A stretch of DNA of 64,000 nucleotides, taken from the sequence record MT478991.1; one strand, written 5' to 3'. Position numbers and translations under genes: made by a program. The DNA comes from Escherichia phage vB_EcoM_011D4. Shown in pieces: positions 1-21,676 of the stretch (the first letter of the stretch is position 1; every line of letters begins with the position of its first letter). The notes beneath the pieces were generated by a model. That model was not told the origin of the DNA. It ran no database searches and worked only from the letters and a program-made list of their open reading frames with translations.

Positions 1-419
1 ACGCAATCCATCAAATCAACAATCTCTGATATCTCATCGGTCATGTCTTCTTCCCCTAAGAGAGCACCATTTACCCATTCGTATTGTTCAGACACATAAT
101 CACAGATTGCATTATATTCTGCTGGGGTTATGTTGTTATGTTTGTAATGTTTGAATACATTATCTCCAAAGTCTTCGGAGTGTACTTCATACATCACATT
201 AATGATTTTCTTGACAAATCCATAATCTTGTGTCTCACGCTCAAGGAAGCGGATAACCTTCACATAATCATCAAAGTTAATCTGATCGCTGATCATCTCA
301 GTGATCATGTAACCATTAATCCCCTCAATGTCATATGTTTCGATGTAATTATCCATACGTTCCATCATTGATTCGCGTGATTCTTCTGAAAGACGAAAAT
401 CCTGTAATTTCTTGAACAT
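1..419 (-). CDS. hypothetical protein, N-terminal part only (gene runs off window start); weak Alt/Mod-like motif
   Basis: ATG at 417-419 preceded by GGAGGCTTA RBS; open frame to position 1; not in ORF track because no stop in window; motif YEWVNGALLG resembles Alt region YINMNNFL. Confidence 0.45.
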   Translation of the reverse strand, partial: MFKKLQDFRLSEESRESMMERMDNYIETYDIEGINGYMITEMISDQINFDDYVKVIRFLERETQDYGFVKKIINVMYEVHSEDFGDNVFKHYKHNNITPAEYNAICDYVSEQYEWVNGALLGEEDMTDEISEIVDLMDC

Positions 420-435
420 TTTAAGCCTCCCATAT

Positions 436-471
436 AACAGAAAACGGGGCTAGTATAAAACTAGTCCCCGT
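436..471 (-). terminator. rho-independent terminator downstream of alt
   Basis: Hairpin ACGGGGACTAGTTTTATACTAGCCCCGT then TTTTCTGTT (minus strand). Confidence 0.6.
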
Positions 472-497
472 TTGAGTCAACCATTATTTCTTAAAAA

Positions 498-2549
498 TTA
501 CATTTTAAATTTATCTGGCATTGCGTCTACAGATACCAGATCAGCGATAAGCTGACGTAGAGTTGCCTTATCTGCTTTCTTACGTTCGGTTTTAGCTTCG
601 CTAATGAAGCTGGAGAAAGACAGGTCAGAAGCAGGTTTAACAACACCTTCACGGATGAATGCATCACCGTCCGCGATCATCTCGCCAGATTCTTGTAATG
701 CTGCCAGTTCATTTTTGTTCATAATATGTGCCTCAATGTAATAAGTTTCTTGTGAATCCGTCGATGCCGTAGCACGAGTTACCGTATCAAAGGATAACAC
801 AACACCGCGAGGAAGTAAAATCTCGCATTCTTTGTAAGCAAATGCTTTGTTACCTACTGGCAAGACAGGGATGTTTTCCGCGCCAGCAATGGAGAAAGCA
901 ACATTAGCGCCACCTTCACCGCGAGAGCCAGCCATAGAATCAACACCAGCAACGGCACTAGCCACGTTTGCATTCCAGCCGCCAAAAATGTTAGGTGCAA
1001 GGGAAGTGCTCACATAGTTTTTAAAGTAAAACGCTTTTTGCTTACGTGCAGTTTCCCACATTTGCGACCGGAAGTCCATACCACGATACAGAATAGTACC
1101 CGGATCAAGTTTAACTCCATAGTTGGAGAAGGCATTATCCAGTGCATCACACATCTTGACCAATTCTTCTGGATCTGCGATGCCTTCAAACTCTTCCAGC
1201 TTACGGTCGGTTAGGAAGTTGTTCATATTGATGTATGCTGCATCGGCATATTCGCTCAACACAAAACCTTCCGCGCCAGGCAGATCAAGATCAATATCTG
1301 CCATCATTTCACCCATGTTGCTAGCAATTGCTTCAAACATACCGGAAGCAACATTACGTAGGGCATCGGTTTTAATCTGGGTGATATGACTACGCAACAT
1401 TTCAGCTTTTACATCTGCTGGCATAGACTGGTCTACTCGATCCATTGCCAGAGCGGTGATCTTGTTTTCGAATACTTCCTCGCTCATGATTTCTTTTAAG
1501 CGTTTGATTGATGCTGCGATAACTTCCGCAGACAACGGATCATATTGATCCTGAACTTTTACCAGTTCGCTTACTGCGTATTTTGCATCGGCTTCGCTTT
1601 CAAAAATAGTACGCATGAAACCATAGCGAGTGATAATATCACTTGTCCAGTCATTCAGAGAACGGGCGGTTGAACGTTCTAAGGCTTGACGATCAATCAG
1701 AGTATTAAACTGTTTCTTAGGTTCGGCTTCGGTGATATCTTCTTCCGGTTTAAGATTAATTTTTTCTGGATGATTCACATAGTCGCTGTTATAGGTCGCT
1801 TGAGTTTTCAGCATTTCTTCTTTAGTCAAACGAGATTTAGCCGCTACGCGTTGTTCCGCTTCCGCGTTTCGTTCTTCTTCTGACACAAGACTAGCCGCAT
1901 ACGCCTCATCTTTAGTCAGAGATTCACCAGTAGCCTTAGATACCCAGCGATCACCTAAATCACTTTCTACTTTAGTGAACAAGGATTCATCAAGTTTAAT
2001 CCCTTTAATCTTATCAATCGCCATACCGCGACGCTTGACAACAACTAAAGCGATCTTTTTGCTGGTCATTACTTCCTGCTGGAATACTTCAAACTTCGGT
2101 GTACGACGCACCAAACGCTCTATAACGCGCTTAACCAGTTCGGTCTTACCTTTCATGCGGGATACGTTAAAACGGAACATAACAGCGTCTAACTGCGCTT
2201 TACGGGCTGTTTCCATAACCACATCAAAAGCACTTGCCATAACTGCAATCGGGTTATCGCCTAGACCATTTTTAAGCTGTACAATACGACCGCTTTTGTT
2301 CATTTCGCACAGTACAACATGTGCGGTCTTGTCACCCATACGAATGATTTTAGGTGTTTTGTTGGTGAAGTTACAAAGACGGACAATCACATCTTTATCG
2401 CGTGTCTGTACTGCAAAAAGCTGTTTAGGATTCTGCTTAGGCTTTAAGCACTGTACCGGGGCAATACTACCAAAGTTTTCTTCCTCTTCCGTCAACAGCC
2501 ATTTCTCGAAAGATTCAATCATTAGATCGTCGATTTCTAAGTTAAACAT
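498..2549 (-). CDS. alt: ADP-ribosyltransferase Alt (packaged head protein)
   Basis: 683 aa; recalled T4 Alt similarity incl. FYFKNYVSTSLAPNIFG vs T4 FYFRNFVSTSLYPNIFG, LYRG and ExE-type motifs; ATG with GAGGATATAAA RBS. Confidence 0.85.
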   Translation of the reverse strand: MFNLEIDDLMIESFEKWLLTEEEENFGSIAPVQCLKPKQNPKQLFAVQTRDKDVIVRLCNFTNKTPKIIRMGDKTAHVVLCEMNKSGRIVQLKNGLGDNPIAVMASAFDVVMETARKAQLDAVMFRFNVSRMKGKTELVKRVIERLVRRTPKFEVFQQEVMTSKKIALVVVKRRGMAIDKIKGIKLDESLFTKVESDLGDRWVSKATGESLTKDEAYAASLVSEEERNAEAEQRVAAKSRLTKEEMLKTQATYNSDYVNHPEKINLKPEEDITEAEPKKQFNTLIDRQALERSTARSLNDWTSDIITRYGFMRTIFESEADAKYAVSELVKVQDQYDPLSAEVIAASIKRLKEIMSEEVFENKITALAMDRVDQSMPADVKAEMLRSHITQIKTDALRNVASGMFEAIASNMGEMMADIDLDLPGAEGFVLSEYADAAYINMNNFLTDRKLEEFEGIADPEELVKMCDALDNAFSNYGVKLDPGTILYRGMDFRSQMWETARKQKAFYFKNYVSTSLAPNIFGGWNANVASAVAGVDSMAGSRGEGGANVAFSIAGAENIPVLPVGNKAFAYKECEILLPRGVVLSFDTVTRATASTDSQETYYIEAHIMNKNELAALQESGEMIADGDAFIREGVVKPASDLSFSSFISEAKTERKKADKATLRQLIADLVSVDAMPDKFKM

Positions 2550-2588
2550 TTTATATCCTCTAGTTGATAACCTATAAACCTATATTTA

Positions 2589-2610
2589 TGAAAACGGGGC
2601 TTAACGCCCC
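2589..2610 (-). terminator. rho-independent terminator
   Basis: GGGGCGTTAAGCCCC then GTTTTC. Confidence 0.55.
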
Positions 2611-2615
2611 ATTTA

Positions 2616-2828
2616 TTATAATGCACCATCGAGCAATTGCTCTAAGGTGTATCCTGAATAGTCTTTTTCAATCAGGATATATTTTCCTACTCGTTTAATA
2701 CAACCACGCATTTCAACGTATTCTGCGTAGTTGATGGTACGAGTTGTTCCATCTTCCAGTAATGCAGTACCGATTTCGTTAATGCGGTCATAAGTTACGT
2801 CGGTAATGATGATTTCGATGTTAGCCAT
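2616..2828 (-). CDS. hypothetical protein (70 aa)
   Basis: ORF with ATG, RBS AAGGAG, upstream promoter cassette. Confidence 0.55.
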   Translation of the reverse strand: MANIEIIITDVTYDRINEIGTALLEDGTTRTINYAEYVEMRGCIKRVGKYILIEKDYSGYTLEQLLDGAL

Positions 2829-2864
2829 TTGATACTCCTTAGTAGTTCGTTTCGGTATGGGTGT

Positions 2865-2893
2865 ATTATGATATACACCCTCTGTTATGTCAA
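2865..2893 (-). promoter_or_regulatory. early promoter cassette (TTGACA-17-CATAAT) with conserved leader
   Basis: Hexamers read on minus strand; leader ACACCCATACCGAAACGA then AAGGAG RBS. Confidence 0.55.
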
Positions 2894-2899
2894 CAACTT

Positions 2900-3079
2900 T
2901 TAGAACATTTTTGAAATTAATTCTGCTTTGATTTCGCAGAGAACATCTAAAGATTTCTCGTCACCTGCTTTTGCGGCTTCTGCTTGCATTTTTGAAATGG
3001 CTTCAATGTCAGTGCAATTATAAGCCGCTTGAACTTTAGCGATTGCGATGATTGCCGATTCGATGGTTAATTGTTTCAT
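2900..3079 (-). CDS. hypothetical small protein (59 aa), below ORF-track cutoff
   Basis: Hand translation MKQLTIESAIIAIAKVQAAYNCTDIEAISKMQAEAAKAGDEKSLDVLCEIKAELISKMF; RBS AGGAGAATCAAAC-ATG; own promoter cassette. Confidence 0.45.
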   Translation of the reverse strand: MKQLTIESAIIAIAKVQAAYNCTDIEAISKMQAEAAKAGDEKSLDVLCEIKAELISKMF

Positions 3080-3111
3080 GTTTGATTCTCCTTTCGTTTC
3101 GGTATGGGTGT

Positions 3112-3140
3112 ATTATAGGGGATCGATGATCCCCTGTCAA
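3112..3140 (-). promoter_or_regulatory. early promoter cassette; palindromic spacer GGGGATCATCGATCCCC
   Basis: TTGACA-17-TATAAT on minus strand. Confidence 0.55.
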
Positions 3141-3148
3141 CAAATTTT

Positions 3149-3667
3149 TTAGTTATTTTTTAATTGCTCATCTTGCAATAGGGCAATCACATGCTGGCGA
3201 TGTTCTTCCGATTGAGGCACACCGAAAAAGTTTGTTTTGTAGAAATACTCTAATCGGTCTTCTCGTGTGCTCTCTTCCATCATGATCGCGGGTAGTCCGA
3301 GATTTCGGAAACGTCGCTTTTCTGCTGGCGTAAAATCACTGTAATACAACATAGAATCATCATTACAAGCAATGCTAAACTCATCCTTCATAAAGGAGAA
3401 TATTGCGTTTAAACGCTGTTTACCGTCCACGATTTCGATCTCATAGCGAGAGCCATCATCAATCTTAGCCATTGCGATAGCACCAACCGGAAAATCATTA
3501 ATCAGGTTTTCGATAAACATACGTTTGTTTTCGGTGTCCCATACTAAAGGACGCTGATAATCTGGGTTCATGTTGATATAGCCATCTTCTAACCATGCAT
3601 CATAAACAGAGATGACAAAGTTTTTAGTATTGGTATAGTAACGGCGTTTAGGCGTTAAACGGTTCAT
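3149..3667 (-). CDS. DUF262 / ParB-Srx-like domain protein
   Basis: Motifs NPDYQRPLVW and IVDGKQRL typical of DUF262 (GmrSD N-terminal / ParB-like); start moved to ATG at 3667 with AGGAGA RBS; coupled to upstream gene (TAAcATG). Confidence 0.55.
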   Translation of the reverse strand: MNRLTPKRRYYTNTKNFVISVYDAWLEDGYINMNPDYQRPLVWDTENKRMFIENLINDFPVGAIAMAKIDDGSRYEIEIVDGKQRLNAIFSFMKDEFSIACNDDSMLYYSDFTPAEKRRFRNLGLPAIMMEESTREDRLEYFYKTNFFGVPQSEEHRQHVIALLQDEQLKNN

Positions 3668-3668
3668 G

Positions 3669-3998
3669 TTATAGTCTCCTGAATGGATCATCACGTAAAT
3701 CAATATCTTTTAAGAACTCATCCCATGAATGGCGGATGTTGTTCTTAATTCTCCAGATAAGAGCAGGGATTGAACGCTCTCCCATCTGGAAGTATGGATC
3801 ATATGATCCGTATGCCCAATATGCTACTACAATTCCACAATCAGCGCAATAGTATTCTATTTCACTTGCTGGCGACCAAAGTCCATCAATATGATCGGTG
3901 ATCTTGCTTTCGATGTTATGGCTATGACAATCAGGGCAACGGATGCAATGACCTTGTTTATCGTAATTTGACGTTAGCGAATACTTAAACAATCTCAT
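3669..3998 (-). CDS. Cys-rich zinc-ribbon protein (109 aa)
   Basis: CxxC...CxxC pattern (CIRCPDC ... CADCG); start overlaps stop of upstream gene (TAATG). Confidence 0.55.
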   Translation of the reverse strand: MRLFKYSLTSNYDKQGHCIRCPDCHSHNIESKITDHIDGLWSPASEIEYYCADCGIVVAYWAYGSYDPYFQMGERSIPALIWRIKNNIRHSWDEFLKDIDLRDDPFRRL

Positions 3999-4714
3999 TA
4001 TAGATCCTTATTTGCTTCAAATACTGCCTTTGCGAATCCTCGCGGGGTAAGTGACCTTATAGTCTTTGTTTTCGTTCCTTTCCCGCCTAGCTTAGAATGC
4101 TGTTTACTGTACCCTTTATTAATCTGCAACGGTTTCTTTTCTGGCATTATAAAGCCTTGTCCGGTCCATAAGCAAGTCTTTTTCGGGTACATATCACGGG
4201 CGGCAATATACTCAGGAAACGTAGGATGCTTATCATCTTCCGGCAAATAACCGCCATATTCCCACGGATGGAACATGTAATCAGGCTTACGCCACATGCT
4301 AGAGATAACGCTTACAGGATTCTCTATCATGTAGGGAACTCCGAGCCATTCACCCAAATAAGCGGTTATTTTAGCTGCCCGTACATCATGAACTTGAATC
4401 AATGGTCCTTGTTCTCGTTTCTTTCGTTCAAAGTGCGCAGCGCCACTAACAGCTAAATTGGTGCACGGTGGGAATGCAAAGATAATATCCGGTTTCCCCC
4501 ATTCAAGGTCCATTGCTCTTTCCAGCCAGTTCAAATCAATCCAGGTGTTTACATAGGTAATGTTTGGATGTTCAAATCTGGTATTATACTTTTTGTATGT
4601 ACCGTGGTCGGCGTCATCCGCATTAAAGCAGACTACCTTATGACCTGCTTTAGCCCATTCTAGCCCCATTATCCCCGATCCGTCAAAGTTGCAGAATATT
4701 AATTTTTGTTTCAT
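3998..4714 (-). CDS. C5-cytosine methyltransferase-like protein (short, no obvious TRD)
   Basis: FxGxG-type motif I (FCNFDGSGIMGLEWAKAGHKVV), PC motif IV (FAFPPCTNLAVSG), ENV-like motif VI (YMIENPVSV); only 238 aa. Confidence 0.5.
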   Translation of the reverse strand: MKQKLIFCNFDGSGIMGLEWAKAGHKVVCFNADDADHGTYKKYNTRFEHPNITYVNTWIDLNWLERAMDLEWGKPDIIFAFPPCTNLAVSGAAHFERKKREQGPLIQVHDVRAAKITAYLGEWLGVPYMIENPVSVISSMWRKPDYMFHPWEYGGYLPEDDKHPTFPEYIAARDMYPKKTCLWTGQGFIMPEKKPLQINKGYSKQHSKLGGKGTKTKTIRSLTPRGFAKAVFEANKDL

Positions 4715-4956
4715 ATACGACCCTTTAACCCAGCACAGATTTTAGTCGGTTCTTTACCGTGCCACATTAAGTAAATTCCGTTAATGCGTCCTTGTTTTGT
4801 ATATGATTCTTTTCTGATCTTCTTATAGTGTCGTGCTTCCTCCGCCGATTGTTTAGAATGTCGGTCATAAAGGAAGAGGAACAAAGGCCAACCATTAGCG
4901 ACCTTAATGCAGTTATTCAAAAATTCCTTATTTCGTTTAATTAATTTTCTTTTCAC
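4711..4956 (-). CDS. hypothetical basic protein (81 aa)
   Basis: GTG start overlapping upstream stop (GTGA); overlaps downstream start by 4 nt. Confidence 0.45.
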   Translation of the reverse strand: MKRKLIKRNKEFLNNCIKVANGWPLFLFLYDRHSKQSAEEARHYKKIRKESYTKQGRINGIYLMWHGKEPTKICAGLKGRI

Positions 4957-5204
4957 GCTGCCCCCATTGGTTTGATAGTAACCGAATCTAAAAGACCTTT
5001 GTTAGCCAGTTCGCGGCAAGTTTTCAGATCCGCAACTTCCCAGCCAGCCGCAATCAGGTTATCAATGAGGCTGTTAGCAACTTCTTCGCTCATGAAAGAG
5101 CACTGTTTGCCGATGGTGTAGCGCACACGCTGTAATTTCAGTTTACGGAAGCCTTTAACGTTCAGGTCTTTAGCGATTTTCTTTGCGGTTTCGATGTTAG
5201 CCAT
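4953..5204 (-). CDS. hypothetical protein (83 aa)
   Basis: ATG with AGGAGAATCAAACA leader; first gene after promoter cassette at 5245-5273. Confidence 0.55.
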   Translation of the reverse strand: MANIETAKKIAKDLNVKGFRKLKLQRVRYTIGKQCSFMSEEVANSLIDNLIAAGWEVADLKTCRELANKGLLDSVTIKPMGAA

Positions 5205-5244
5205 TGTTTGATTCTCCTAAGTGGTATCTCGTCTTGATGGTTGT

Positions 5245-5273
5245 ATTGTAGGGGAGTTATCCTCCCCTGTCAA
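5245..5273 (-). promoter_or_regulatory. early promoter cassette; palindromic spacer GGGGAGGATAACTCCCC
   Basis: TTGACA-17-TACAAT. Confidence 0.5.
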
Positions 5274-5287
5274 CACTTTTTATAAAA

Positions 5288-5455
5288 TTATTTGTTAATT
5301 TCTGGTGCGTTGCTAGGATAGTAACCTTCTTTAACTCCGAGGTATTTCGCAACCATCCCTACAATCTTCTGTGCTACTACAATGTCAAATTTCAGATAAT
5401 CTTCACCGTAGGTTTCAATGATATATGCTTCACATGCTGCTTTAGTCTCGAACAT
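5288..5455 (-). CDS. hypothetical small protein (55 aa), paralog of 8544-8711
   Basis: Hand translation MFETKAACEAYIIETYGEDYLKFDIVVAQKIVGMVAKYLGVKEGYYPSNAPEINK; about 85 percent nt identity with 8544-8711 by eye. Confidence 0.5.
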   Translation of the reverse strand: MFETKAACEAYIIETYGEDYLKFDIVVAQKIVGMVAKYLGVKEGYYPSNAPEINK

Positions 5456-5488
5456 TTTGATTCTCCTATTTCGTTTCGGTATGTGTGC

Positions 5489-5517
5489 ATTATAGGGGAT
5501 CTCCCGATCCCCGTCAA
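5489..5517 (-). promoter_or_regulatory. early promoter cassette; near-palindromic spacer GGGATCGGGAGATCCCC
   Basis: TTGACG-17-TATAAT. Confidence 0.5.
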
Positions 5518-5530
5518 CAACTTTTTTAAA

Positions 5531-5812
5531 TTATTCGTGATTAGTTTCGATGTTGTGCATTTTGCACCAGTTCAGCCAATCGCCAAGATCTTGATAGTTG
5601 ATGCTTTTATCTGCTGCCATCGTTTTTGTCTTGATACCCATATGTGCGTTATGAGTAAGCATTTTTACAGTGAACTCGATTTTATCGCCTTTAGCTTTAA
5701 CATCAACCAGTTTGGTCCACTGGCTACCAGCGCCGCGAATGTTCATACCAACGATGTTTCCGATGTATGCTTCTTTGTTTTTCAGGATTTCGGTTGCTTT
5801 GATGAATTTCAT
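5531..5812 (-). CDS. hypothetical protein (93 aa)
   Basis: ATG, RBS GGAGAATCAAAA, promoter cassette upstream. Confidence 0.55.
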   Translation of the reverse strand: MKFIKATEILKNKEAYIGNIVGMNIRGAGSQWTKLVDVKAKGDKIEFTVKMLTHNAHMGIKTKTMAADKSINYQDLGDWLNWCKMHNIETNHE

Positions 5813-5844
5813 TTTTGATTCTCCAGTTCGTTTCGGTATGGGTG

Positions 5845-5873
5845 TATTATGCTATGTTCTTACTTTGGTGTCA
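5845..5873 (-). promoter_or_regulatory. early promoter cassette
   Basis: TTGACA-17-CATAAT plus conserved leader. Confidence 0.55.
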
Positions 5874-5881
5874 ACAACTTT

Positions 5882-6151
5882 TTAGATATTTTCAGAAATA
5901 AATTTTAAAACTTGACGTAAATGTTTCTCATCTTTGATAGTCGCCGGAAGTTCTTCTTTTACTTCCTGTGCAAGATAGATATTTCCGTTCCAAGTGAAAG
6001 ATCCGTCTTCGTTTACGAGATAGCTGAACATCCACTCGCAATCATTTTCGATTTCATATACACACAGAAGGGTGTAATCGTTAAAGCTATTGATTTCAAG
6101 GTCGAAGCCGTGACGTTTTGCAAAGTTGGTAGTGGTTTTAGTCAGTGCCAT
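5882..6151 (-). CDS. hypothetical protein (89 aa)
   Basis: ATG, RBS AGGAGAATCAAACA, promoter cassette upstream. Confidence 0.55.
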   Translation of the reverse strand: MALTKTTTNFAKRHGFDLEINSFNDYTLLCVYEIENDCEWMFSYLVNEDGSFTWNGNIYLAQEVKEELPATIKDEKHLRQVLKFISENI

Positions 6152-6191
6152 TGTTTGATTCTCCTAAGTGGTATCTCGTTTCGATGGGTGT

Positions 6192-6220
6192 ATTATGCTA
6201 TAGGCGTGTTCTGGTGTCAA
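6192..6220 (-). promoter_or_regulatory. early promoter cassette
   Basis: TTGACA-17-CATAAT plus conserved leader. Confidence 0.55.
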
Positions 6221-6244
6221 TTCTTTTTTTAAAAAATTTTATGC

Positions 6245-6271
6245 AATAAAAAAGCCGACGCTAAGGTCGGC
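6245..6271 (-). terminator. rho-independent terminator
   Basis: GCCGACCTTAGCGTCGGC then TTTTTTATT. Confidence 0.6.
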
Positions 6272-6279
6272 TAATAAAA

Positions 6280-6591
6280 TCATTTAGACAAATAATCATT
6301 CTGTGCAATCCGGTCGGCGTATGCTGGTGTTACGTCAATCGCAATCACTTTAACGCGTGCTTTCTTGCGACCTGGGTTTTCTCGTAACCAGTGCTCATGA
6401 CCGTGCACATTTTTATACTTTGATGCTTCTTCGAAGGTACGGATCGGACCTGGGTAATCAGCGTAAAGGATCTCTAGATCTTCGGTGATGTAAAAATATA
6501 CATCGTAATTGCTGTTCTCTAGCTTAAGCAGAGACTTTCGGAACATTGGGAGATTTTCGCGGGTAAATTCAAAGATATTATCTTTCATAGT
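6280..6591 (-). CDS. hypothetical protein, paralog family A (HxHW...IAIDV motif)
   Basis: Start moved to ATG at 6591 (RBS GAGGATAATACT); track start 6735 would overlap upstream gene and a terminator. Confidence 0.55.
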   Translation of the reverse strand, partial: TMKDNIFEFTRENLPMFRKSLLKLENSNYDVYFYITEDLEILYADYPGPIRTFEEASKYKNVHGHEHWLRENPGRKKARVKVIAIDVTPAYADRIAQNDYLSK

Positions 6592-6610
6592 ATTATCCTC
6601 AATAGTTGGA

Positions 6611-6632
6611 TGAAAAGGGGGCTTAACGCCCC
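6611..6632 (-). terminator. rho-independent terminator
   Basis: GGGGCGTTAAGCCCCC then TTTTCAT. Confidence 0.55.
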
Positions 6633-6637
6633 ATATA

Positions 6638-6925
6638 TTAAAACAGTCCTTCCTGTACACCGTAATAGAGTTCGTCGCTGATAATTTCATTAATGCGACG
6701 GTGTGCATATTCCTGATTTGCGAAGTTGTCAGCAAGTTCTACTTTAGTTTCTCCGTCATGAGTCCATTTAGTGATAACTTTACCATCTGCAAATTTGAAG
6801 TTGAACTCTTTAGCTACCGCATCGCGTACCAGACGTGCAAACTTATTGTTGCGGATTGCATTGTCGGTTTCGTGTGCAGCGTGAGCGAATTTGTTAACTT
6901 TCAGAGTGATAGTAATGTATGCCAT
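6638..6925 (-). CDS. hypothetical protein, paralog family B
   Basis: 95 aa; weak similarity to 9912-10223 (AKEFN region); promoter cassette upstream; terminator downstream. Confidence 0.55.
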   Translation of the reverse strand: MAYITITLKVNKFAHAAHETDNAIRNNKFARLVRDAVAKEFNFKFADGKVITKWTHDGETKVELADNFANQEYAHRRINEIISDELYYGVQEGLF

Positions 6926-6971
6926 AATTTGATTCTCCTAGTTAGAAAGTGTATCTCGTTTCGATGGGTGT

Positions 6972-7000
6972 ATTATGCTATACACCCGACCTCATGTCAA
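6972..7000 (-). promoter_or_regulatory. early promoter cassette
   Basis: TTGACA-17-CATAAT plus conserved leader. Confidence 0.55.
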
Positions 7001-7006
7001 CACTTT

Positions 7007-7285
7007 TTATAAAATAATTTTTTGATATTTTTCTATGATGTTTGTGTAGGTCACATCAACCGCTAGCACCGTTGCTTCGAATCCACCGTCTAGCCAATGG
7101 CTATGATCTCTTTCATCAAAGAAGCCGAGGCCAATACGAAGACCATCCTTAAACTCTGCGCGTACATTTAGATCATCATCGATAAACAGATAAAACCATG
7201 AATTTTTACTAGGATTGATGATACAACCTTTCAGATTAGGGAGAATATCACGACTAAGAATAAACTTATCACCTACTTTGAACAT
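7007..7285 (-). CDS. hypothetical protein, paralog family A
   Basis: Start moved to ATG at 7285 (RBS GAGGAAAATATT); motif HSHWLDGGFEATVLAVDV. Confidence 0.5.
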   Translation of the reverse strand: MFKVGDKFILSRDILPNLKGCIINPSKNSWFYLFIDDDLNVRAEFKDGLRIGLGFFDERDHSHWLDGGFEATVLAVDVTYTNIIEKYQKIIL

Positions 7286-7299
7286 AATATTTTCCTCAC

Positions 7300-7608
7300 T
7301 TATAAAGTTTGACCGTTGTTTTTCGCGTAATGCTGAATGCGTGCTTGATCTGCTTCCGCTGGTGATAGATTCCATGCGATCACTACAACTTCTGACGCAT
7401 CATGATCATTATCACTTACCCAATGATTGTGATTCATACAGTTATTTGCTATCGCGTGAGAAAATGATTTCATCACTGGAGACGTATAATCATAGTAACG
7501 GATTTTCAGATTTTCATCAACGTACAAATAGATCGTATAAGGTTTATATTCAGTAACCAGTAACAGACAGTTACGCAATTCTGGGAAAATCTTTTTAGTT
7601 AATTTCAT
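7300..7608 (-). CDS. hypothetical protein, paralog family A
   Basis: Motif NHNHW...VVVIAWNL; RBS GGAGAACTAGAAT. Confidence 0.5.
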   Translation of the reverse strand: MKLTKKIFPELRNCLLLVTEYKPYTIYLYVDENLKIRYYDYTSPVMKSFSHAIANNCMNHNHWVSDNDHDASEVVVIAWNLSPAEADQARIQHYAKNNGQTL

Positions 7609-7810
7609 ATTCTAGTTCTCCGTAATACACAGTAATCCATTTTTCTTCATACTTTGTATCTTTCCAGCACACAATCCCGTTTACTGTGCAATCTTTGGAA
7701 TTGACGAATGATTCATATTGTTCTGCATCTTCCATCATTGCATGAGCGGTCTTTTCATCGAATATATCGCAGATCGCTTTATATGCTCGATAATCTTTAA
7801 ATTTGCTCAT
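7595..7810 (-). CDS. hypothetical protein, paralog family C
   Basis: MSKFKDYRAYK... similar to product of 7813-8022. Confidence 0.45.
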   Translation of the reverse strand: MSKFKDYRAYKAICDIFDEKTAHAMMEDAEQYESFVNSKDCTVNGIVCWKDTKYEEKWITVYYGELEYEIN

Positions 7811-7812
7811 AA

Positions 7813-8022
7813 TTAACACCAATCAAGAGTTTTTGAGAAAACCTCTATCCATTGTTGAGTATATGCGGTTTCTTTCCATGACACAATACCAGTCGAATAA
7901 TGGTTTTTGTTTCCAGAAAAGGACGGGCATTTTGATGCATCTTCCATCATCTTTTCGGCGAACTCTGGTGCGTATACTCGCAAAATCTGTTGATATGCTT
8001 TGTATTCTTTAAATTTGCTCAT
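7813..8022 (-). CDS. hypothetical protein, paralog family C
   Basis: MSKFKEYKAYQ...; tandem to 7595-7810. Confidence 0.45.
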   Translation of the reverse strand: MSKFKEYKAYQQILRVYAPEFAEKMMEDASKCPSFSGNKNHYSTGIVSWKETAYTQQWIEVFSKTLDWC

Positions 8023-8287
8023 AATCATTCACTACCTTATCAGCTTCTTTTGTTGTTTTTACATCAACTGCGATAACTCGTAAAGGTTCGTCATGGTTCC
8101 ACCAGTGGTCATGAATATCGGCTTGTGATTTATCACCAAAGGAATCACGAATATCATTTTTACATTTATAGCTAATGTGACCGTCATAGTCAACATAAAG
8201 GTAATTATCGAAAATCGGCGTTTTTAAGATCATACCGAAAAATCTTTCTTTGTGTGTCTTATCCAGCGTTGCAGTAATTCGCATCAT
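8009..8287 (-). CDS. hypothetical protein, paralog family A
   Basis: Motif HDHWWNHDEPLRVIAVDV. Confidence 0.5.
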   Translation of the reverse strand: MMRITATLDKTHKERFFGMILKTPIFDNYLYVDYDGHISYKCKNDIRDSFGDKSQADIHDHWWNHDEPLRVIAVDVKTTKEADKVVNDYEQI

Positions 8288-8299
8288 AATATATTCCTC

Positions 8300-8479
8300 T
8301 TAGAAAGGGATGGTCATTTCTTGAGCTTGTACATTCTCGTTAGGATTAAACTTCATCCAACCGATATTGTCTACCAGCATATGCACATTTTTATCATATC
8401 CTACGTGGGTAGTCAATACTGTATGTGCTTTACCTTCAATGATGAGTTCCATGTACTTCTGAACTTCGATAGCTTTCAT
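8300..8479 (-). CDS. hypothetical small protein (59 aa), below ORF-track cutoff
   Basis: Hand translation MKAIEVQKYMELIIEGKAHTVLTTHVGYDKNVHMLVDNIGWMKFNPNENVQAQEMTIPF; RBS GGAGAATCAAA; promoter cassette upstream. Confidence 0.45.
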   Translation of the reverse strand: MKAIEVQKYMELIIEGKAHTVLTTHVGYDKNVHMLVDNIGWMKFNPNENVQAQEMTIPF

Positions 8480-8511
8480 TTTGATTCTCCGTTTGTTGTC
8501 TTTATGGGAGT

Positions 8512-8540
8512 ATCTTACTACTCCCTTTAATCATTGTCAA
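8512..8540 (-). promoter_or_regulatory. early promoter cassette; hairpin GGGAGTAGTAAGATACTCCC across -10
   Basis: TTGACA-17-TAAGAT. Confidence 0.5.
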
Positions 8541-8543
8541 CTA

Positions 8544-8711
8544 TTATTTGTTAATTTCTGGTGCGTTGCTTGGATAGTAACCTTCTTTAACACCCAGATA
8601 TTTTGCAACCATTCCGGTGATCTTCTGTGCTACTACGATATCGAATTTCAGGTAGTCTTCACCGTGGTTTGCTACAATGTATGCTTCGCATTCTGCTTTA
8701 GTCTGGAACAT
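8544..8711 (-). CDS. hypothetical small protein (55 aa), paralog of 5288-5455
   Basis: MFQTKAECEAYIVANHGEDYLKFDIVVAQKITGMVAKYLGVKEGYYPSNAPEINK; start moved to ATG at 8711. Confidence 0.5.
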   Translation of the reverse strand: MFQTKAECEAYIVANHGEDYLKFDIVVAQKITGMVAKYLGVKEGYYPSNAPEINK

Positions 8712-8745
8712 TTTTGATTCTCCTATATCTCGTTGGTATGTGTGC

Positions 8746-8774
8746 ATTATAGGGGATCACAGATCCCCTGTCAA
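8746..8774 (-). promoter_or_regulatory. early promoter cassette; palindromic spacer GGGGATCTGTGATCCCC
   Basis: TTGACA-17-TATAAT. Confidence 0.55.
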
Positions 8775-8779
8775 CAACT

Positions 8780-9073
8780 TTATAATGCTTTATATGCGTA
8801 TTTCATAAATTTGTCTGCCACTTCATTGGCATGTTCAGATTCTACGCCTGATTCGAGAACAATAGCTAGGTCGGTTTCGTCATTCCCGCCGTACCAATGA
8901 TTTGATGTTCGATTTTTTTCAATTGGAAATTGGTCACTTTTATCTGTGCGACAAAATACATCTAAATGCTCGTCTATGTAAAAGATCCAATCCTCATAAA
9001 GAATAACGGTATTAGCCAGATTTTTATTGCCTTCAACGAAAGGTTCAGCTACAAATAGCTTAGTTTGTTCCAT
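8780..9073 (-). CDS. hypothetical protein, paralog family A-like
   Basis: Start moved to ATG at 9073 (RBS GAGGAAATTACT); motif NHWYGGNDETDLAIVLE. Confidence 0.5.
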   Translation of the reverse strand: MEQTKLFVAEPFVEGNKNLANTVILYEDWIFYIDEHLDVFCRTDKSDQFPIEKNRTSNHWYGGNDETDLAIVLESGVESEHANEVADKFMKYAYKAL

Positions 9074-9089
9074 AGTAATTTCCTCAAAA

Positions 9090-9281
9090 TTATACAGCTT
9101 CGTAAACTTCCCAATGTCCAACACCAGCACGCTTAACGAAAAGGTTTTCTTTGATGTTATTCATAAACGTCTGGATGGATTTAATGCGGTTGGAAGGTTT
9201 CCAGTCTTCGTTAGCATTGCGGCGATACATTATAACATTACCAGATCGCTTATATTCAGCAACCATTTTAAGACCACACAT
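9090..9281 (-). CDS. hypothetical protein (63 aa)
   Basis: ATG with GAGGATAATATT RBS; hairpin TGGGAGGGTAATACTCTCCCA just upstream. Confidence 0.45.
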   Translation of the reverse strand: MCGLKMVAEYKRSGNVIMYRRNANEDWKPSNRIKSIQTFMNNIKENLFVKRAGVGHWEVYEAV

Positions 9282-9337
9282 AATATTATCCTCAATTTGT
9301 GGGAGAGTATTACCCTCCCAATTATTGTTATACTACA

Positions 9338-9640
9338 TTACGCAAAATGGCGTGTCAATGCTTCTTTTGCTGTTCCGCTAAGATTCTCGATCTCTCCTGG
9401 CATAACATCAACCGCCAGAACTTCTACAACATCCTCTGATCCTAACCAGTGAGTATGACCTTTGTAGAACTTGATATCCCATTTAACGCTATCGCTAGCC
9501 CACCACACATCACCGTCGATAAAGTTGATGTAAAGCACACTACGCCACATTGAATTAATTACTTTCAATACTGCGCCTTTCATCTCTTCCACGGTATGGT
9601 CTTCCATTTTGAAGACCTCACCTACCTGAACTTTTGCCAT
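9338..9640 (-). CDS. hypothetical protein, paralog family A
   Basis: Motif HTHWLGSEDVVEVLAVDV; RBS GAGGTGACTAA. Confidence 0.5.
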   Translation of the reverse strand: MAKVQVGEVFKMEDHTVEEMKGAVLKVINSMWRSVLYINFIDGDVWWASDSVKWDIKFYKGHTHWLGSEDVVEVLAVDVMPGEIENLSGTAKEALTRHFA

Positions 9641-9657
9641 TTAGTCACCTCTCTTTA

Positions 9658-9837
9658 TTACATAACAATCACGCCAGCCGTTGAAAGTTGATGTTTCAAC
9701 TGAGCATTTTCTGCTACCGTCAAATCAATGATTTCTTGTGACGCTGCAATCATATAGCCATTGGTGATATTGTTTTGCATCAGTTCAATGGTTTCTTCGT
9801 TGTAGCGGATTTTAGCGATGATTTCGTTGAAGTTCAT
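9658..9837 (-). CDS. hypothetical small protein (59 aa), below ORF-track cutoff
   Basis: Hand translation MNFNEIIAKIRYNEETIELMQNNITNGYMIAASQEIIDLTVAENAQLKHQLSTAGVIVM; promoter cassette upstream. Confidence 0.45.
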   Translation of the reverse strand: MNFNEIIAKIRYNEETIELMQNNITNGYMIAASQEIIDLTVAENAQLKHQLSTAGVIVM

Positions 9838-9871
9838 AATTGATTCTCCTAGTTCGTTTCGGTATGTGTGT

Positions 9872-9901
9872 ATTATAGGGGAGTTTAACCTCCCCTGTCA
9901 A
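9872..9901 (-). promoter_or_regulatory. early promoter cassette; palindromic spacer GGGGAGGTTAAACTCCCC
   Basis: TTGACA-18-TATAAT. Confidence 0.5.
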
Positions 9902-9911
9902 CAACTTTTTT

Positions 9912-10223
9912 TTAAAGTTTTTCCATGATAACGGTCATAATTACATCTTCTGCGCGAGCGGTCAGATTATCAGCGTCAGCATGTGGGCGGTTGGTTGTTA
10001 CAGAGATAACACCGTTGCGCACTGGTTTGATATTGATATCAAGATGATCCGCGAAACGTTCGCCAGTTACAGAATGAATTTTGGTGTTAAATTCTTTTGC
10101 CAGTGCCTTGCGAACTTCACGAATCAGGATAGCGTTTTTCAGTTGGTTCTCTGCGCTCATGGTCTTCTGGGTGTTCATGGTTCCGTCGAAGTCAATCATT
10201 GGCAGCGTTACGATGTATTTCAT
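9912..10223 (-). CDS. hypothetical protein, paralog family B
   Basis: 103 aa; ATG with GGAGAATAAAAA RBS; promoter cassette upstream. Confidence 0.55.
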   Translation of the reverse strand: MKYIVTLPMIDFDGTMNTQKTMSAENQLKNAILIREVRKALAKEFNTKIHSVTGERFADHLDINIKPVRNGVISVTTNRPHADADNLTARAEDVIMTVIMEKL

Positions 10224-10268
10224 TTTTTATTCTCCGTTTAAGAAAGTGTGTTTCGTTTTGATGTGTGT

Positions 10269-10297
10269 AGTATAGGGGATCGGTGATCCCCTGTCAA
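10269..10297 (-). promoter_or_regulatory. early promoter cassette; palindromic spacer GGGGATCACCGATCCCC
   Basis: TTGACA-17-TATACT. Confidence 0.5.
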
Positions 10298-10310
10298 CAA
10301 CTTTTTTGAA

Positions 10311-10655
10311 TTATTTTTTCATGAGCTTAATTGCTTCTTCCATAGCCAACACATTTCGATAGTTAGGGTATCGTGTTAGATCGTCATACATTCGCTTAAG
10401 GGTGGAAACTTCCTCAAACTCTGGGTTTTCTAGATACAGTTGAACAAATTGTTTCTCTACCATCTCTGCTTTTAGCTTGTCTGCTTGTTCCTGTTCATAT
10501 GATTTAGTTGGACCCAACACCAACAAAATGATAAAGGTGATCAACGGGCTAATGATCAATGATAGGATAACATAACCGATAACGCTACGGTTTAAACGGC
10601 TTGCATACATGCCTACCAGGAAAACAAAAAGGATATAGATAAACAGAAAGAACAT
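10311..10655 (-). CDS. small membrane protein (2 predicted TM helices)
   Basis: Hydrophobic N-terminal 50 aa then charged C-terminus. Confidence 0.5.
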   Translation of the reverse strand: MFFLFIYILFVFLVGMYASRLNRSVIGYVILSLIISPLITFIILLVLGPTKSYEQEQADKLKAEMVEKQFVQLYLENPEFEEVSTLKRMYDDLTRYPNYRNVLAMEEAIKLMKK

Positions 10656-10662
10656 ATAATGG

Positions 10663-11136
10663 CTACTCCTTATTTTCGCGCTCGTACTTTTCGAAATAAA
10701 ATTCTACTGGCTGGTCATGAATTGACAGCAAGCCAAAGCGTTTAGCCGCTCGCAATCCCATATTGCGCTGAATGTACTTCTGGAAGTTCTCGCGTATACA
10801 CTTACGCCAGTATTCTAAGCCCATACAACTTTTATAAAGATTGCATTGCACACACGCCGGATTCATGTTATCAAGTATATCATGTTCCGGTTTATGCATT
10901 CCTACAACCTTATACTTCCACGATCCATCATCATTACGGGCAATTCGTCCATTTTCATCATAGACTACCTTTGAGCGTCGCAATACTGGTTTGATGTGGT
11001 CTGCGTGCCAGCGATCCCCTAGTTCCTCGCCACAATAGGCACAACGTCCACCATATTTCATTTTCAGGATCTGGCGTTGCTCTTTCTTTGACAATTTTTT
11101 AGGTTTAGGGGCTTTCGCCCCTTCATTATCACACAT
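10663..11136 (-). CDS. HNH endonuclease (free-standing, homing-endonuclease-like)
   Basis: CAYCGEELGDRWHADHIKP ... NPACVQCN motif; start overlaps ligase 3 prime end by 8 nt. Confidence 0.7.
   Translation of the reverse strand: MCDNEGAKAPKPKKLSKKEQRQILKMKYGGRCAYCGEELGDRWHADHIKPVLRRSKVVYDENGRIARNDDGSWKYKVVGMHKPEHDILDNMNPACVQCNLYKSCMGLEYWRKCIRENFQKYIQRNMGLRAAKRFGLLSIHDQPVEFYFEKYERENKE
11107..11120 (-). repeat. GGGGCGAAAGCCCC hairpin at ligase / HNH junction
   Basis: Lies in first codons of HNH ORF and last codons of ligase. Confidence 0.45.
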
Positions 11137-21647: not shown

Positions 21648-21676
21648 ATTATAGCGGGGATTTCTCCCCGCGTCAA
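21648..21676 (-). promoter_or_regulatory. early promoter cassette; palindromic spacer CGGGGAGAAATCCCCGC
   Basis: TTGACG-17-TATAAT. Confidence 0.5.

Follow-up and report, generated by a model that had tools for sequence, protein, structure and literature searches.

Five genes lie packed end to end on the minus strand of a 64,000-nucleotide stretch of Escherichia phage vB_EcoM_011D4 (record MT478991.1; hereafter, the window). The question that they raise is whether they form one multi-protein system built around a DNA methyltransferase, as an earlier note on this DNA had proposed, or a run of unrelated genes behind a common promoter. The window is 97 to 99% identical to RB49, JSE, phi1, TB34, and similar phages, and on this sequence identity the source phage is a Krischvirus (RB49-like coliphage). 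The five open reading frames (ORFs), listed with the flanking elements in Table 1, are homologues of RB49p190, p189.1, p189, p188, and p187 and are already annotated in ca. 56 phage records.

TABLE 1 Features of the five-gene unit and its boundaries in the window
Feature	Position	Strand	Basis
Upstream PeSL cassette, TTGACA-17-TACAAT	5245..5273	-	Promoter scan 11/12
83-aa protein, RB49p190 homologue	4953..5204	-	ORF
81-aa basic protein, GTG start, RB49p189.1 homologue	4711..4956	-	ORF
238-aa predicted Dcm-like C5-cytosine DNA methyltransferase, RB49p189 homologue	3998..4714	-	ORF
109-aa four-cysteine zinc-ribbon protein, RB49p188 homologue	3669..3998	-	ORF
172-aa DUF262-only protein, RB49p187 homologue	3149..3667	-	ORF
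Downstream PeSL cassette, TTGACA-17-TATAAT	3112..3140	-	Promoter scan 12/12 and exact PeSL pattern match

Re-reading of the sequence recovered all five ORFs where the earlier note had put them, together with the junctions GTGA, ATGA, TAATG, and TAAcATG. The 172-aa ORF starts at the ATG at position 3667, with AGGAG 8 nt upstream, in agreement with RB49p187; a longer version starting with TTG at position 3703 was rejected because it is not the annotated start of RB49p187. The location between alt and gene 30 also held true for RB49, where this stretch is a hyperplastic region of ca. 28 small ORFs. Overlaps of 1 to 4 nt are common among neighbouring RB49 gene pairs, and throughout the genome a stop codon typically overlaps the next start. 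Therefore, tight packing alone does not point to a functional module. The five genes showed no anomaly in GC content or GC3, a search of Rfam with window positions 1 to 12000 gave no match, and NCBIfam was of no help for any of the five.

The unit is delimited by two PeSL cassettes. In the upstream one, the spacer of a sigma-70-type early promoter folds into a GGGGAG..CUCCCC hairpin with a predicted RNA energy of -19.4 kcal/mol (z, -5.8). The promoter that had been placed at this position is real, both by its scan score and as a member of a repeated cassette, the pattern of which occurs six times in the window versus 0 expected. The downstream cassette, with the hairpin GGGGAUC..GAUCCCC (-13.3 kcal/mol; z, -2.8), closes the unit and serves as promoter for the gene that follows. 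The features by which PeSLs are recognized were all found, namely, a sigma-70-type early promoter, a GC-rich stem-loop in the spacer, and repeats throughout the genome beside small ORFs. PeSLs have been described in RB49 and phi1 (Arbiol et al. 2010, PMC2839356; Comeau et al. 2014, PMC4122927), in which the shuffling of PeSL-bounded ORFan cassettes is a known mode of gene exchange. The present unit resembles those cassettes in having a hairpin-spacer early promoter at each end and in lying within a hyperplastic small-ORF region, but it carries five genes instead of one or two. Within it, a single lower-scoring promoter-like site (4686..4657, 10/12) was found, together with two weak hairpin-plus-T sites. 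Over the scanned region, promoter-like sites were at chance level (8 found versus 9.5 ± 2.8 in shuffled sequences), and terminator-like sites were not clearly above it (6 versus 2.9 ± 1.6). The five genes are presumed to be carried on one mRNA.

Only one of the five genes, the methyltransferase gene, has a well-supported function. Its 238-aa product matched phrog_757 over residues 1 to 237 (E value, 8e-91) and had 7,314 homologues, all of ca. 225 to 260 aa; the family is present in 1,520 phage records, including Drexlerviridae, Dhillonvirus, Webervirus, Vequintavirinae, and others. The C5-cytosine methyltransferase motifs reported from a first reading of the sequence were all located, i.e., motif I (F10-x-G12-x-G14, SAM binding), motif IV (P82-P83-C84-T85, with the catalytic Cys), and motif VI (E131-N132-P133, with the catalytic Glu), and each was invariant in 39 homologues, as were many positions of the variable region. 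A profile search and a structure model had been proposed as checks. The Pfam PF00145 match, at 15.7 bits (E value, 0.01), covered residues 10 to 100 only and missed the gathering threshold of 22 bits. The high-confidence structure model showed a C5-methyltransferase fold, with DNMT3A/B, a C5-carboxymethyltransferase, M.HhaI, and M.HaeIII as the nearest folds. A precomputed PF00145 match exists for a few of the homologues. Sequence and profile searches of the PDB found nothing, and the placement came from the fold search. Together, phrog_757, the invariant motifs, and the predicted fold bear out the assignment to the C5-cytosine methyltransferase type. Database records name p189 along the same lines, as DNA methyltransferase (RefSeq), C-5 cytosine DNA methylase, or Dcm-like enzyme.

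The protein is ca. 90 to 240 residues shorter than M.HhaI, M.HaeIII, and E. coli Dcm. Unlike the canonical type II C5 methyltransferases, it has no cognate restriction enzyme and scores below the PF00145 cut-off, and the full target-recognition domain is replaced by an insert of only ca. 75 residues between motifs VIII and IX (R142 to R220). In this respect it is like DNMT3, which also has a compact insert in place of a large target-recognition domain. The replacing region is highly conserved across the family, which suggests a compact, fixed recognition element and an enzyme that reads its target itself.

Aligned from end to end, the 238-aa protein shares 55% identity with the Dcm of phage KarlJaspers (bas06_0055; E value, 6e-92), and phage K42, which is 95% identical to KarlJaspers, carries the same 711-bp Dcm gene. 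When expressed alone from a plasmid, K42 Dcm increased the 5mC content of msDNA and set off retron Ec86, while the C82A/E128A/K175A/K176A mutant had neither effect (bioRxiv 10.1101/2023.08.16.553469). The four mutated residues correspond to C84, E131, K178, and K179 here, in matching local contexts. The two enzymes also share their length class (236 to 238 aa), motif order, and status as early or accessory genes; they differ in that the KarlJaspers/K42 gene belongs to a T1-like siphovirus, while the present one belongs to a T4-like myovirus and lies inside a five-gene PeSL-bounded unit. Since the K42 relative is active alone and its key residues are conserved here, the 238-aa protein is, by analogy, a stand-alone enzyme that would need no partner proteins. 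For the K42 enzyme itself, specificity for CCWGG had been assumed by analogy with host Dcm rather than mapped. RB49 is propagated on E. coli B, and BL21(DE3), a derivative of E. coli B, carries the native Ec86 retron (bioRxiv 10.1101/2023.08.16.553469). Because RB49 grows on E. coli B, the Krischvirus enzyme may be unlike K42 Dcm in its target or its level and may not be a trigger of retron Ec86.

We consider it quite probable that the locus is one early RB49-like transcription unit, bounded by two PeSLs and made up of five accessory genes of independent origin, among them a stand-alone methyltransferase. For the present phage, we infer the activity, target sequence, and biological role of this enzyme. 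In the canonical chemistry, Cys84 of the PPC motif would attack C6 and Glu131 of the ENP motif would protonate N3, leading to SAM-dependent methylation of cytosine at position 5. A short, fairly rare sequence would most likely be methylated in phage DNA during replication, with host DNA methylated incidentally, and progeny DNA would probably be shielded from restriction enzymes that read this sequence. The two small proteins, like the zinc-ribbon and DUF262-only proteins, would act as separate accessories, having only the promoter in common with the methyltransferase.

Published data on Krischvirus DNA bear on how much methylation could be expected. HpaII and NheI both cut RB49 DNA (PMC4041780), and in nucleoside HPLC-MS of TB34, modified bases were below detection (PMC13390438). 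If CCWGG were the target, its 28 sites in the 64 kb of the window would put methylation at only ca. 0.2% of cytosines. A site-specific enzyme fits both negative bulk assays, and an inactive enzyme fits them equally well. In the literature, we found neither a mapped target motif for the short Dcm-like family nor Krischvirus methylomes. The Krischvirus phage SAP is reported to contain hmC and glucosyl-hmC, and the 238-aa enzyme was considered as their source; this was rejected since TB34, with zero sequence differences from SAP across the five genes, has canonical cytosines.

Another view is that the Krischvirus protein does not work on phage DNA, either because it is inactive or because it acts on another substrate (e.g., tRNA, as DNMT2 does) or on host DNA only. 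We consider this unlikely, given that the catalytic and SAM-binding motifs are invariant, that the protein is clearly conserved across ca. 56 Krischvirus genomes, that one of its family members forms 5mC in DNA, and that the best structural matches are DNA enzymes; the low density of sites accounts for the negative results of the bulk assays.

The last gene of the unit encodes the 172-aa protein, in which the DUF262 signatures reported earlier (NPDYQRPLVW and DGKQRL) are present, the DGKQR motif being invariant. The Pfam search that had been suggested gave GmrSD_N (DUF262) with an E value of 5.9e-20 over residues 28 to 118 only, and PADLOC NsnA matched at 6e-20. The AF2 model (pLDDT, 85.7) contains a single domain of the ParB-N-like nucleotide-binding fold plus helices, and the top Foldseek matches were CTP-binding ParB N-domains, Noc, PadC, and the BrxU N-domain; sequence search of the PDB gave chance-level matches only. 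Neither Pfam nor the model revealed a DUF1524/HNH nuclease domain. Thus, the protein shares the DUF262 ParB-N-like domain and the DGxQR motif with GmrSD/BrxU and DndB/SspE, but it has neither the nuclease domain nor any other, and the GmrSD/DndB-type function that had been suggested for it is not supported. Since the nuclease domain is lacking, it is not a GmrSD enzyme. It falls instead in a large, distinct family made up of compact DUF262-only proteins, with 17,040 representatives at E values of ≤1e-3 in an exhaustive profile search, mostly of ca. 170 or 280 aa. Pfam recognized nothing in the N-terminal extensions of the ca. 280-aa relatives, which were checked for fusions.

The distribution of this protein and of the zinc-ribbon protein was taken from tblastn against phage records (for DUF262, also from the profile search). 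DUF262-only homologues occur in KP27, RB43, and the P22-like phage UPF_BP1 in the absence of the other four genes. They adjoin unrelated genes in KP27 and RB43, and in UPF_BP1 the absence extends to the complete genome. Scanning of viral contigs with the DUF262 protein recovered Krischvirus contigs only, and a word-indexed homologue search gave 7 relatives. The 109-aa protein has a CxxC...CxxC arrangement and a WAYGSYDP motif and matched phrog_2993, a phrog of unknown function (E value, 5e-34), as well as, weakly and under the cut-off, a TFIIB zinc ribbon (E value, 5.6e-4). Its homologues in Nonagvirus JenK1 and Felixounavirus FelixO1 are found in different gene contexts, with no methyltransferase or DUF262 gene. 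Along similar lines, the contig scan with this protein recovered Krischvirus contigs only, and the word-indexed search gave 1 relative.

These distributions bear on the proposal that the methyltransferase, zinc-ribbon, and DUF262 proteins, or all five, make up one modification or anti-restriction machine in which the partners guide the short methyltransferase, itself lacking target recognition. The genes are tightly packed behind a single promoter, and within Krischvirus four of the five are always together (56 records each). ParB-like domains are often fused to phage N6 or N4 methyltransferases, which gives a ParB-fold partner for a methyltransferase some precedent. Against this, homologues of the four neighbours were found within 6 kb of 0 of 78 methyltransferase loci outside Krischvirus, by both phmmer and profile HMMs, and among the matches listed in non-Krischvirus records, DNA-level similarity was restricted to the methyltransferase gene portion. 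Each partner family occurs without the others, the packing is of a kind found throughout the genome, and the conserved region that replaces the target-recognition domain points to self-recognition. Co-presence is uninformative in a genus of genomes that are 97 to 99% identical, although it may leave room for cooperation in that single genus. The genes thus do not co-occur across unrelated genomes as those of a conserved multi-gene system would, and we rate a common machine as very improbable; the four neighbours are unrelated accessory genes rather than parts of a new multi-protein system. The idea that specificity is supplied by the partners is not supported, given the same count of 0 of 78 loci and the activity of the K42 relative alone (bioRxiv 10.1101/2023.08.16.553469). 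Nor is the system undescribed: the genes are RB49p187 to p190, in GenBank since the deposit of the RB49 genome, and RefSeq already calls p189 a DNA methyltransferase. With the family annotated and one member experimentally studied, the locus carries little weight as a new system.

A narrower cooperation, between the methyltransferase and the DUF262-only protein, is likewise very improbable. Here, C5 self-methylation would expose phage DNA to type IV nucleases, and the nuclease-less DUF262 protein would serve as a decoy or poison subunit against GmrSD/BrxU/SspE-type enzymes. The BrxU/GmrSD N-domain fold with its DGxQR motif and missing nuclease is consistent with such a role, as is the setting of the UPF_BP1 homologue, an early-left accessory region where it neighbours the anti-RecBCD gene abc2; the restriction-alleviation gene ral lies at another place in that phage. 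GmrS-only proteins also exist as partner proteins of GmrSD enzymes (PMC12373910). The pairing is nonetheless pure inference and gains no support from co-occurrence, given that DUF262-only proteins are common without the methyltransferase (in the KP27 and RB43 neighbourhoods and in the whole UPF_BP1 genome) and the methyltransferase family is common without DUF262. We see hardly any likelihood that the nuclease-less DUF262 protein, whether by itself or together with the zinc-ribbon protein, serves in counter-defence by poisoning or decoying modification-dependent nucleases of the GmrSD/BrxU/SspE type, in which case its placement behind a Dcm-like methyltransferase in Krischvirus would spare self-methylated DNA from restriction.

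Two candidates for conserved partners were rejected on inspection. The gene that precedes the DUF262 homologue in KP27 and RB43 (107 to 112 aa, with an overlapping start) is not a zinc-ribbon gene by sequence check, and its product has a hydrophobic C terminus and resembles a membrane-anchored protein. A 240-aa ORF of UPF_BP1 was likewise checked and is not a methyltransferase.

The two small proteins at the head of the unit have different distributions. The 81-aa protein matched phrog_7065 (E value, 1.6e-37) and has homologues in T5-like, Karamvirus, Dhakavirus, and Gelderlandvirus-type phages. Within Krischvirus, p189.1 is a variable member of the unit: JSE and one IMG/VR contig lack it, and there p190 directly adjoins the methyltransferase gene. 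The 83-aa protein matched phrog_14908, of unknown function (E value, 5e-59), and tblastn found it in 56 records, all at least 95% identical and all Krischvirus-type; in PADLOC, it weakly matched RT_UG35 in the C-terminal part of that model (E value, 2.6e-5).

On the minus strand of the window (3149 to 5204), we reproduced the five overlapping ORFs that the earlier note had described, with the same junctions (GTGA, ATGA, TAATG, and TAAcATG). About 55 Krischvirus genomes, RB49, phi1, JSE, GEC-3S, TB34, and ELT3 among them, matched the 2.6 kb around this unit at 97 to 99% identity, and the five genes are RB49p190, p189.1, p189, p188, and p187. Annotations already exist: p189 is a "DNA methyltransferase" in RefSeq and a "putative C-5 cytosine DNA methylase" in other records, and p187 is labeled "DUF262 domain protein" in one record. 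The proposed undescribed multiprotein modification or exclusion system is not supported. The unit is an already annotated early operon of unrelated accessory genes, bounded by promoter-early stem-loop (PeSL) cassettes; one of the genes encodes a member of the stand-alone Dcm-like methyltransferases of phages, a family that is known and has been studied experimentally.

Features of the five-gene unit and PeSL copies in the window
Feature	Position	Strand	Details
83-aa ORF (RB49p190 homolog)	5204-4953	minus	
81-aa ORF (RB49p189.1 homolog)	4956-4711	minus	GTG start
238-aa ORF (RB49p189 homolog)	4714-3998	minus	
109-aa ORF (RB49p188 homolog)	3998-3669	minus	
172-aa ORF (RB49p187 homolog)	3667-3149	minus	ATG start, AGGAG 8 nt upstream
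Upstream promoter, TTGACA-17-TACAAT	5273-5245	minus	Score 11/12
Second promoter of the same type, right after the last stop codon of the unit	3140-3112	minus	Score 12/12
Six PeSL copies	3112-3140, 5245-5273, 5489-5517, 8746-8774, 10269-10297, 21648-21676	minus (all)	Pattern search

The 238-aa protein had been correctly recognized as C5-methyltransferase-like. Its match to Pfam PF00145 was subthreshold (E value, 0.01; 15.7 bits, cutoff of 22), and in PHROGs it matched phrog_757 ("DNA methyltransferase") over its full length (E value, 8e-91). Its homologs amounted to 7,314 proteins, nearly all of 225 to 260 aa. By tblastn, the gene was present in 1,520 phage records (T1-like Drexlerviridae, Dhillonvirus, Klebsiella Webervirus, Vequintavirinae, phiKO2, mEp021, and many others), where the annotations of family members include "Dcm-like C5 cytosine methyltransferase." Among 39 aligned members, F10/G12/G14 (motif I), P82-P83-C84-T85 (motif IV), E131-N132-P133 (motif VI), and a long, motif IX-like C-terminal segment (KTK.IRSLTPRGFA) were invariant, as were many positions of the ca. 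75-residue stretch in the place of the target recognition domain. The AlphaFold model of the protein was confident (pLDDT, 90.9; pTM, 0.89), with the DNMT3A/B catalytic domains as best Foldseek matches (E value of about 1e-8). Together, the phrog_757 match, the invariant motifs, the model, and its structural matches indicate that the predicted fold is a real but compact C5-methyltransferase.

Experimental work on this family comes from phage K42, a phage with 95% identity to the BASEL phage KarlJaspers (bioRxiv 10.1101/2023.08.16.553469). Every mutation by which K42 escaped retron Ec86 fell in its 711-bp "dcm" gene, and this gene alone on a plasmid was toxic only to retron-carrying cells and raised 5-methylcytosine (5mC) in the retron msDNA, as measured by LC-MS; Dcm C82A/E128A/K175A/K176A produced neither effect, and the authors also remarked on the likeness to the DNMT3A structure (bioRxiv 10.1101/2023.08.16.553469). 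Thus, one enzyme of this family methylates DNA at cytosine C5 with no need for another phage protein. KarlJaspers has a 711-bp "Dcm-like" gene whose product is 55% identical to the window protein over the full length (E value, 6e-92), and the aaroes gene is 93% identical to the KarlJaspers gene at the DNA level. C82, E128, K175, and K176 of the aaroes enzyme lie within FPPCT, IENP, and KKTC, contexts matched by C84, E131, K178, and K179 of the window protein; the latter has the Cys, Glu, and Lys-Lys residues that were mutated in K42 Dcm. MG1655 is a dcm+ strain. The K42 experiments were done in MG1655, in which msDNA 5mC was still low in the empty-vector control, and the CCWGG target of K42 Dcm was taken over from the host Dcm with indirect support only (bioRxiv 10.1101/2023.08.16.553469). 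Considering this control, the true target may differ from CCWGG.

We then considered whether the five genes form a system, using 80 methyltransferase-encoding loci from viral contigs together with their 6-kb flanks. The five window proteins served as phmmer queries against all ORFs of these loci, and profile HMMs were used in addition for two of them, the DUF262 and zinc-ribbon proteins. Two loci were Krischvirus contigs, with the zinc-ribbon, DUF262, and p190 neighbors present and p189.1 missing in one; in none of the other 78 did either search find a homolog of the other four genes within 6 kb. Along similar lines, DNA-level matches in the non-Krischvirus records listed covered the methyltransferase portion of the unit only. 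Together with the activity of K42 Dcm alone, this argues against the proposal that partner proteins supply the specificity. That four of the genes occur together in every Krischvirus record is uninformative, since those genomes are 97 to 99% identical.

The family of the 109-aa zinc-ribbon protein (p188) was found in 292 phage records; its gene is surrounded by small ORFs in Nonagvirus JenK1, close to RusA and dUTPase, and adjoins frd/td in FelixO1, with neither a methyltransferase nor a DUF262 gene in these two neighborhoods. The DUF262-only family was found in 326 records, including Slopekvirus KP27 and Pseudotevenvirus RB43, where the preceding gene encodes an unrelated protein whose hydrophobic C terminus resembles a membrane anchor. 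In the P22-like phage UPF_BP1, the DUF262-only gene neighbors abc2 in the early-left accessory region, and tblastn detected none of the other four genes in the complete genome. Relatives of p189.1 occur in T5-like phages and in several genera of T4-like phages, while p190 is restricted to Krischvirus. Given these separate patterns, every gene of the unit, the methyltransferase included, has its own distribution.

The DUF262 assignment of the last gene was also right (Pfam GmrSD_N, residues 28 to 118; E value, 5.9e-20). The closest PADLOC model was NsnA, and the structure model (pLDDT, 85.7) resembled the CTP-binding N-terminal domains of ParB, Noc, PadC, and KorB, plus the BrxU N-domain. The N-domain is common to this protein and GmrSD/BrxU; neither Pfam nor the model revealed a second domain, so the protein is not of the GmrSD, SspE, or DndB type. 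An exhaustive profile search yielded 17,040 cluster representatives of DUF262-only relatives at an E value of ≤1e-3 and 5,175 at ≤1e-10. Family members (P0129 to P0276) were mostly stand-alone forms of ca. 170 aa or forms of ca. 280 aa, whose N-terminal extension had no Pfam match, and our literature search found no paper giving the 172-aa protein a function. Residues 12 to 75 of the 83-aa, Krischvirus-only protein weakly matched positions 722 to 785 of the 938-position PADLOC model of the defense-associated reverse transcriptase RT_UG35 (E value, 2.6e-5).

The upstream promoter was present where the earlier note had placed it. Both flanking promoters fit the pattern TTGACAGGGG-N9-CCCCTAYAAT, found six times in the window (0 to 3 mismatches) versus 0 in 100 shuffles, and RNA folding gave stable hairpins in their spacers (-19.4 kcal/mol upstream and -13.3 kcal/mol downstream). 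They belong to the PeSL cassettes reported in RB49 and phi1 and later characterized as composite promoter-terminator motifs (PMC2839356; PMC4122927). The copies in the window are interspersed through the small-ORF run upstream of alt. Early transcription of all five genes would start at the PeSL promoter. Within the unit, the scan picked up a single promoter-like site of lower score plus two weak hairpins, with promoter-like sites at chance level and terminator-like sites not clearly above chance in the scanned region. Stop/start overlaps of 1 to 4 nt are frequent across the whole RB49 alt-gene 30 region; therefore, the tight packing is the usual style of the genome and no module signature. 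The close spacing would permit translational coupling.

In RB49, the unit is part of a hyperplastic region flanked by alt (p184) and gene 30 (p213), with about 28 small ORFs that have no assigned function. In JSE (NC_012740.1, 119618 to 121431) and a metagenomic Krischvirus contig (L006, 5774 to 6004), p189.1 is missing and p190 directly adjoins the methyltransferase gene, which indicates that the unit gains and loses genes internally. At 5456 to 5530 of the window, the p191 and p193 homologs are separated by a PeSL alone, as in ELT3; ORFan192 (RB49p192, 477 bp), located there in RB49, is absent. The RB49 gene was demonstrated to form PeSL mini-circles (PMC2839356).

Over about 3.6 kb aligned, phage SAP differs from TB34 by a tandem duplication of a 79-bp PeSL-plus-leader cassette just downstream of the DUF262 gene (682 to 760 in SAP sequence L003 versus 1681 in TB34 sequence L002; window ~3080 to 3148), annotated with a spurious 38-aa ORF, and elsewhere only by two single-T insertions further upstream. 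SAP DNA was reported to contain hmC/glucosyl-hmC, for which no pathway is known, and TB34 DNA plain cytosine (PMC13390438). Since the alignment showed no difference in the five coding sequences, the unit does not explain this puzzle.

As for its role in Krischvirus, homology and the K42 work suggest that the 238-aa enzyme would, independently of partners, methylate cytosine C5 at a short motif in replicating DNA. RB49 DNA is cleaved by HpaII and NheI (PMC4041780), and modified nucleosides were not detected in TB34 DNA (PMC13390438); these bulk data are compatible with methylation at a short motif or without it. Were the target CCWGG, the 28 sites in the 64-kb window would amount to only about 0.2% of cytosines methylated. 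In Drexlerviridae, the BASEL study found no simple link between such methyltransferases and restriction resistance (PMC8594841). RB49 grows on E. coli B (PMC4041780), and a native Ec86 retron is present in the E. coli B derivative BL21(DE3) (bioRxiv 10.1101/2023.08.16.553469); some difference in behavior between the Krischvirus enzyme and K42 Dcm is therefore possible.

Under a maximal-order Markov model, CCWGG was observed 28 times in the window versus 68.9 expected (O/E, 0.41). GGCC (0.38) and CCSGG (0.34) were also strongly depleted, and GATC (1.05), GGWCC (0.92), and GCWGC (0.95) showed no depletion. The depletion of the first three suggests past selection by restriction enzymes with those specificities.
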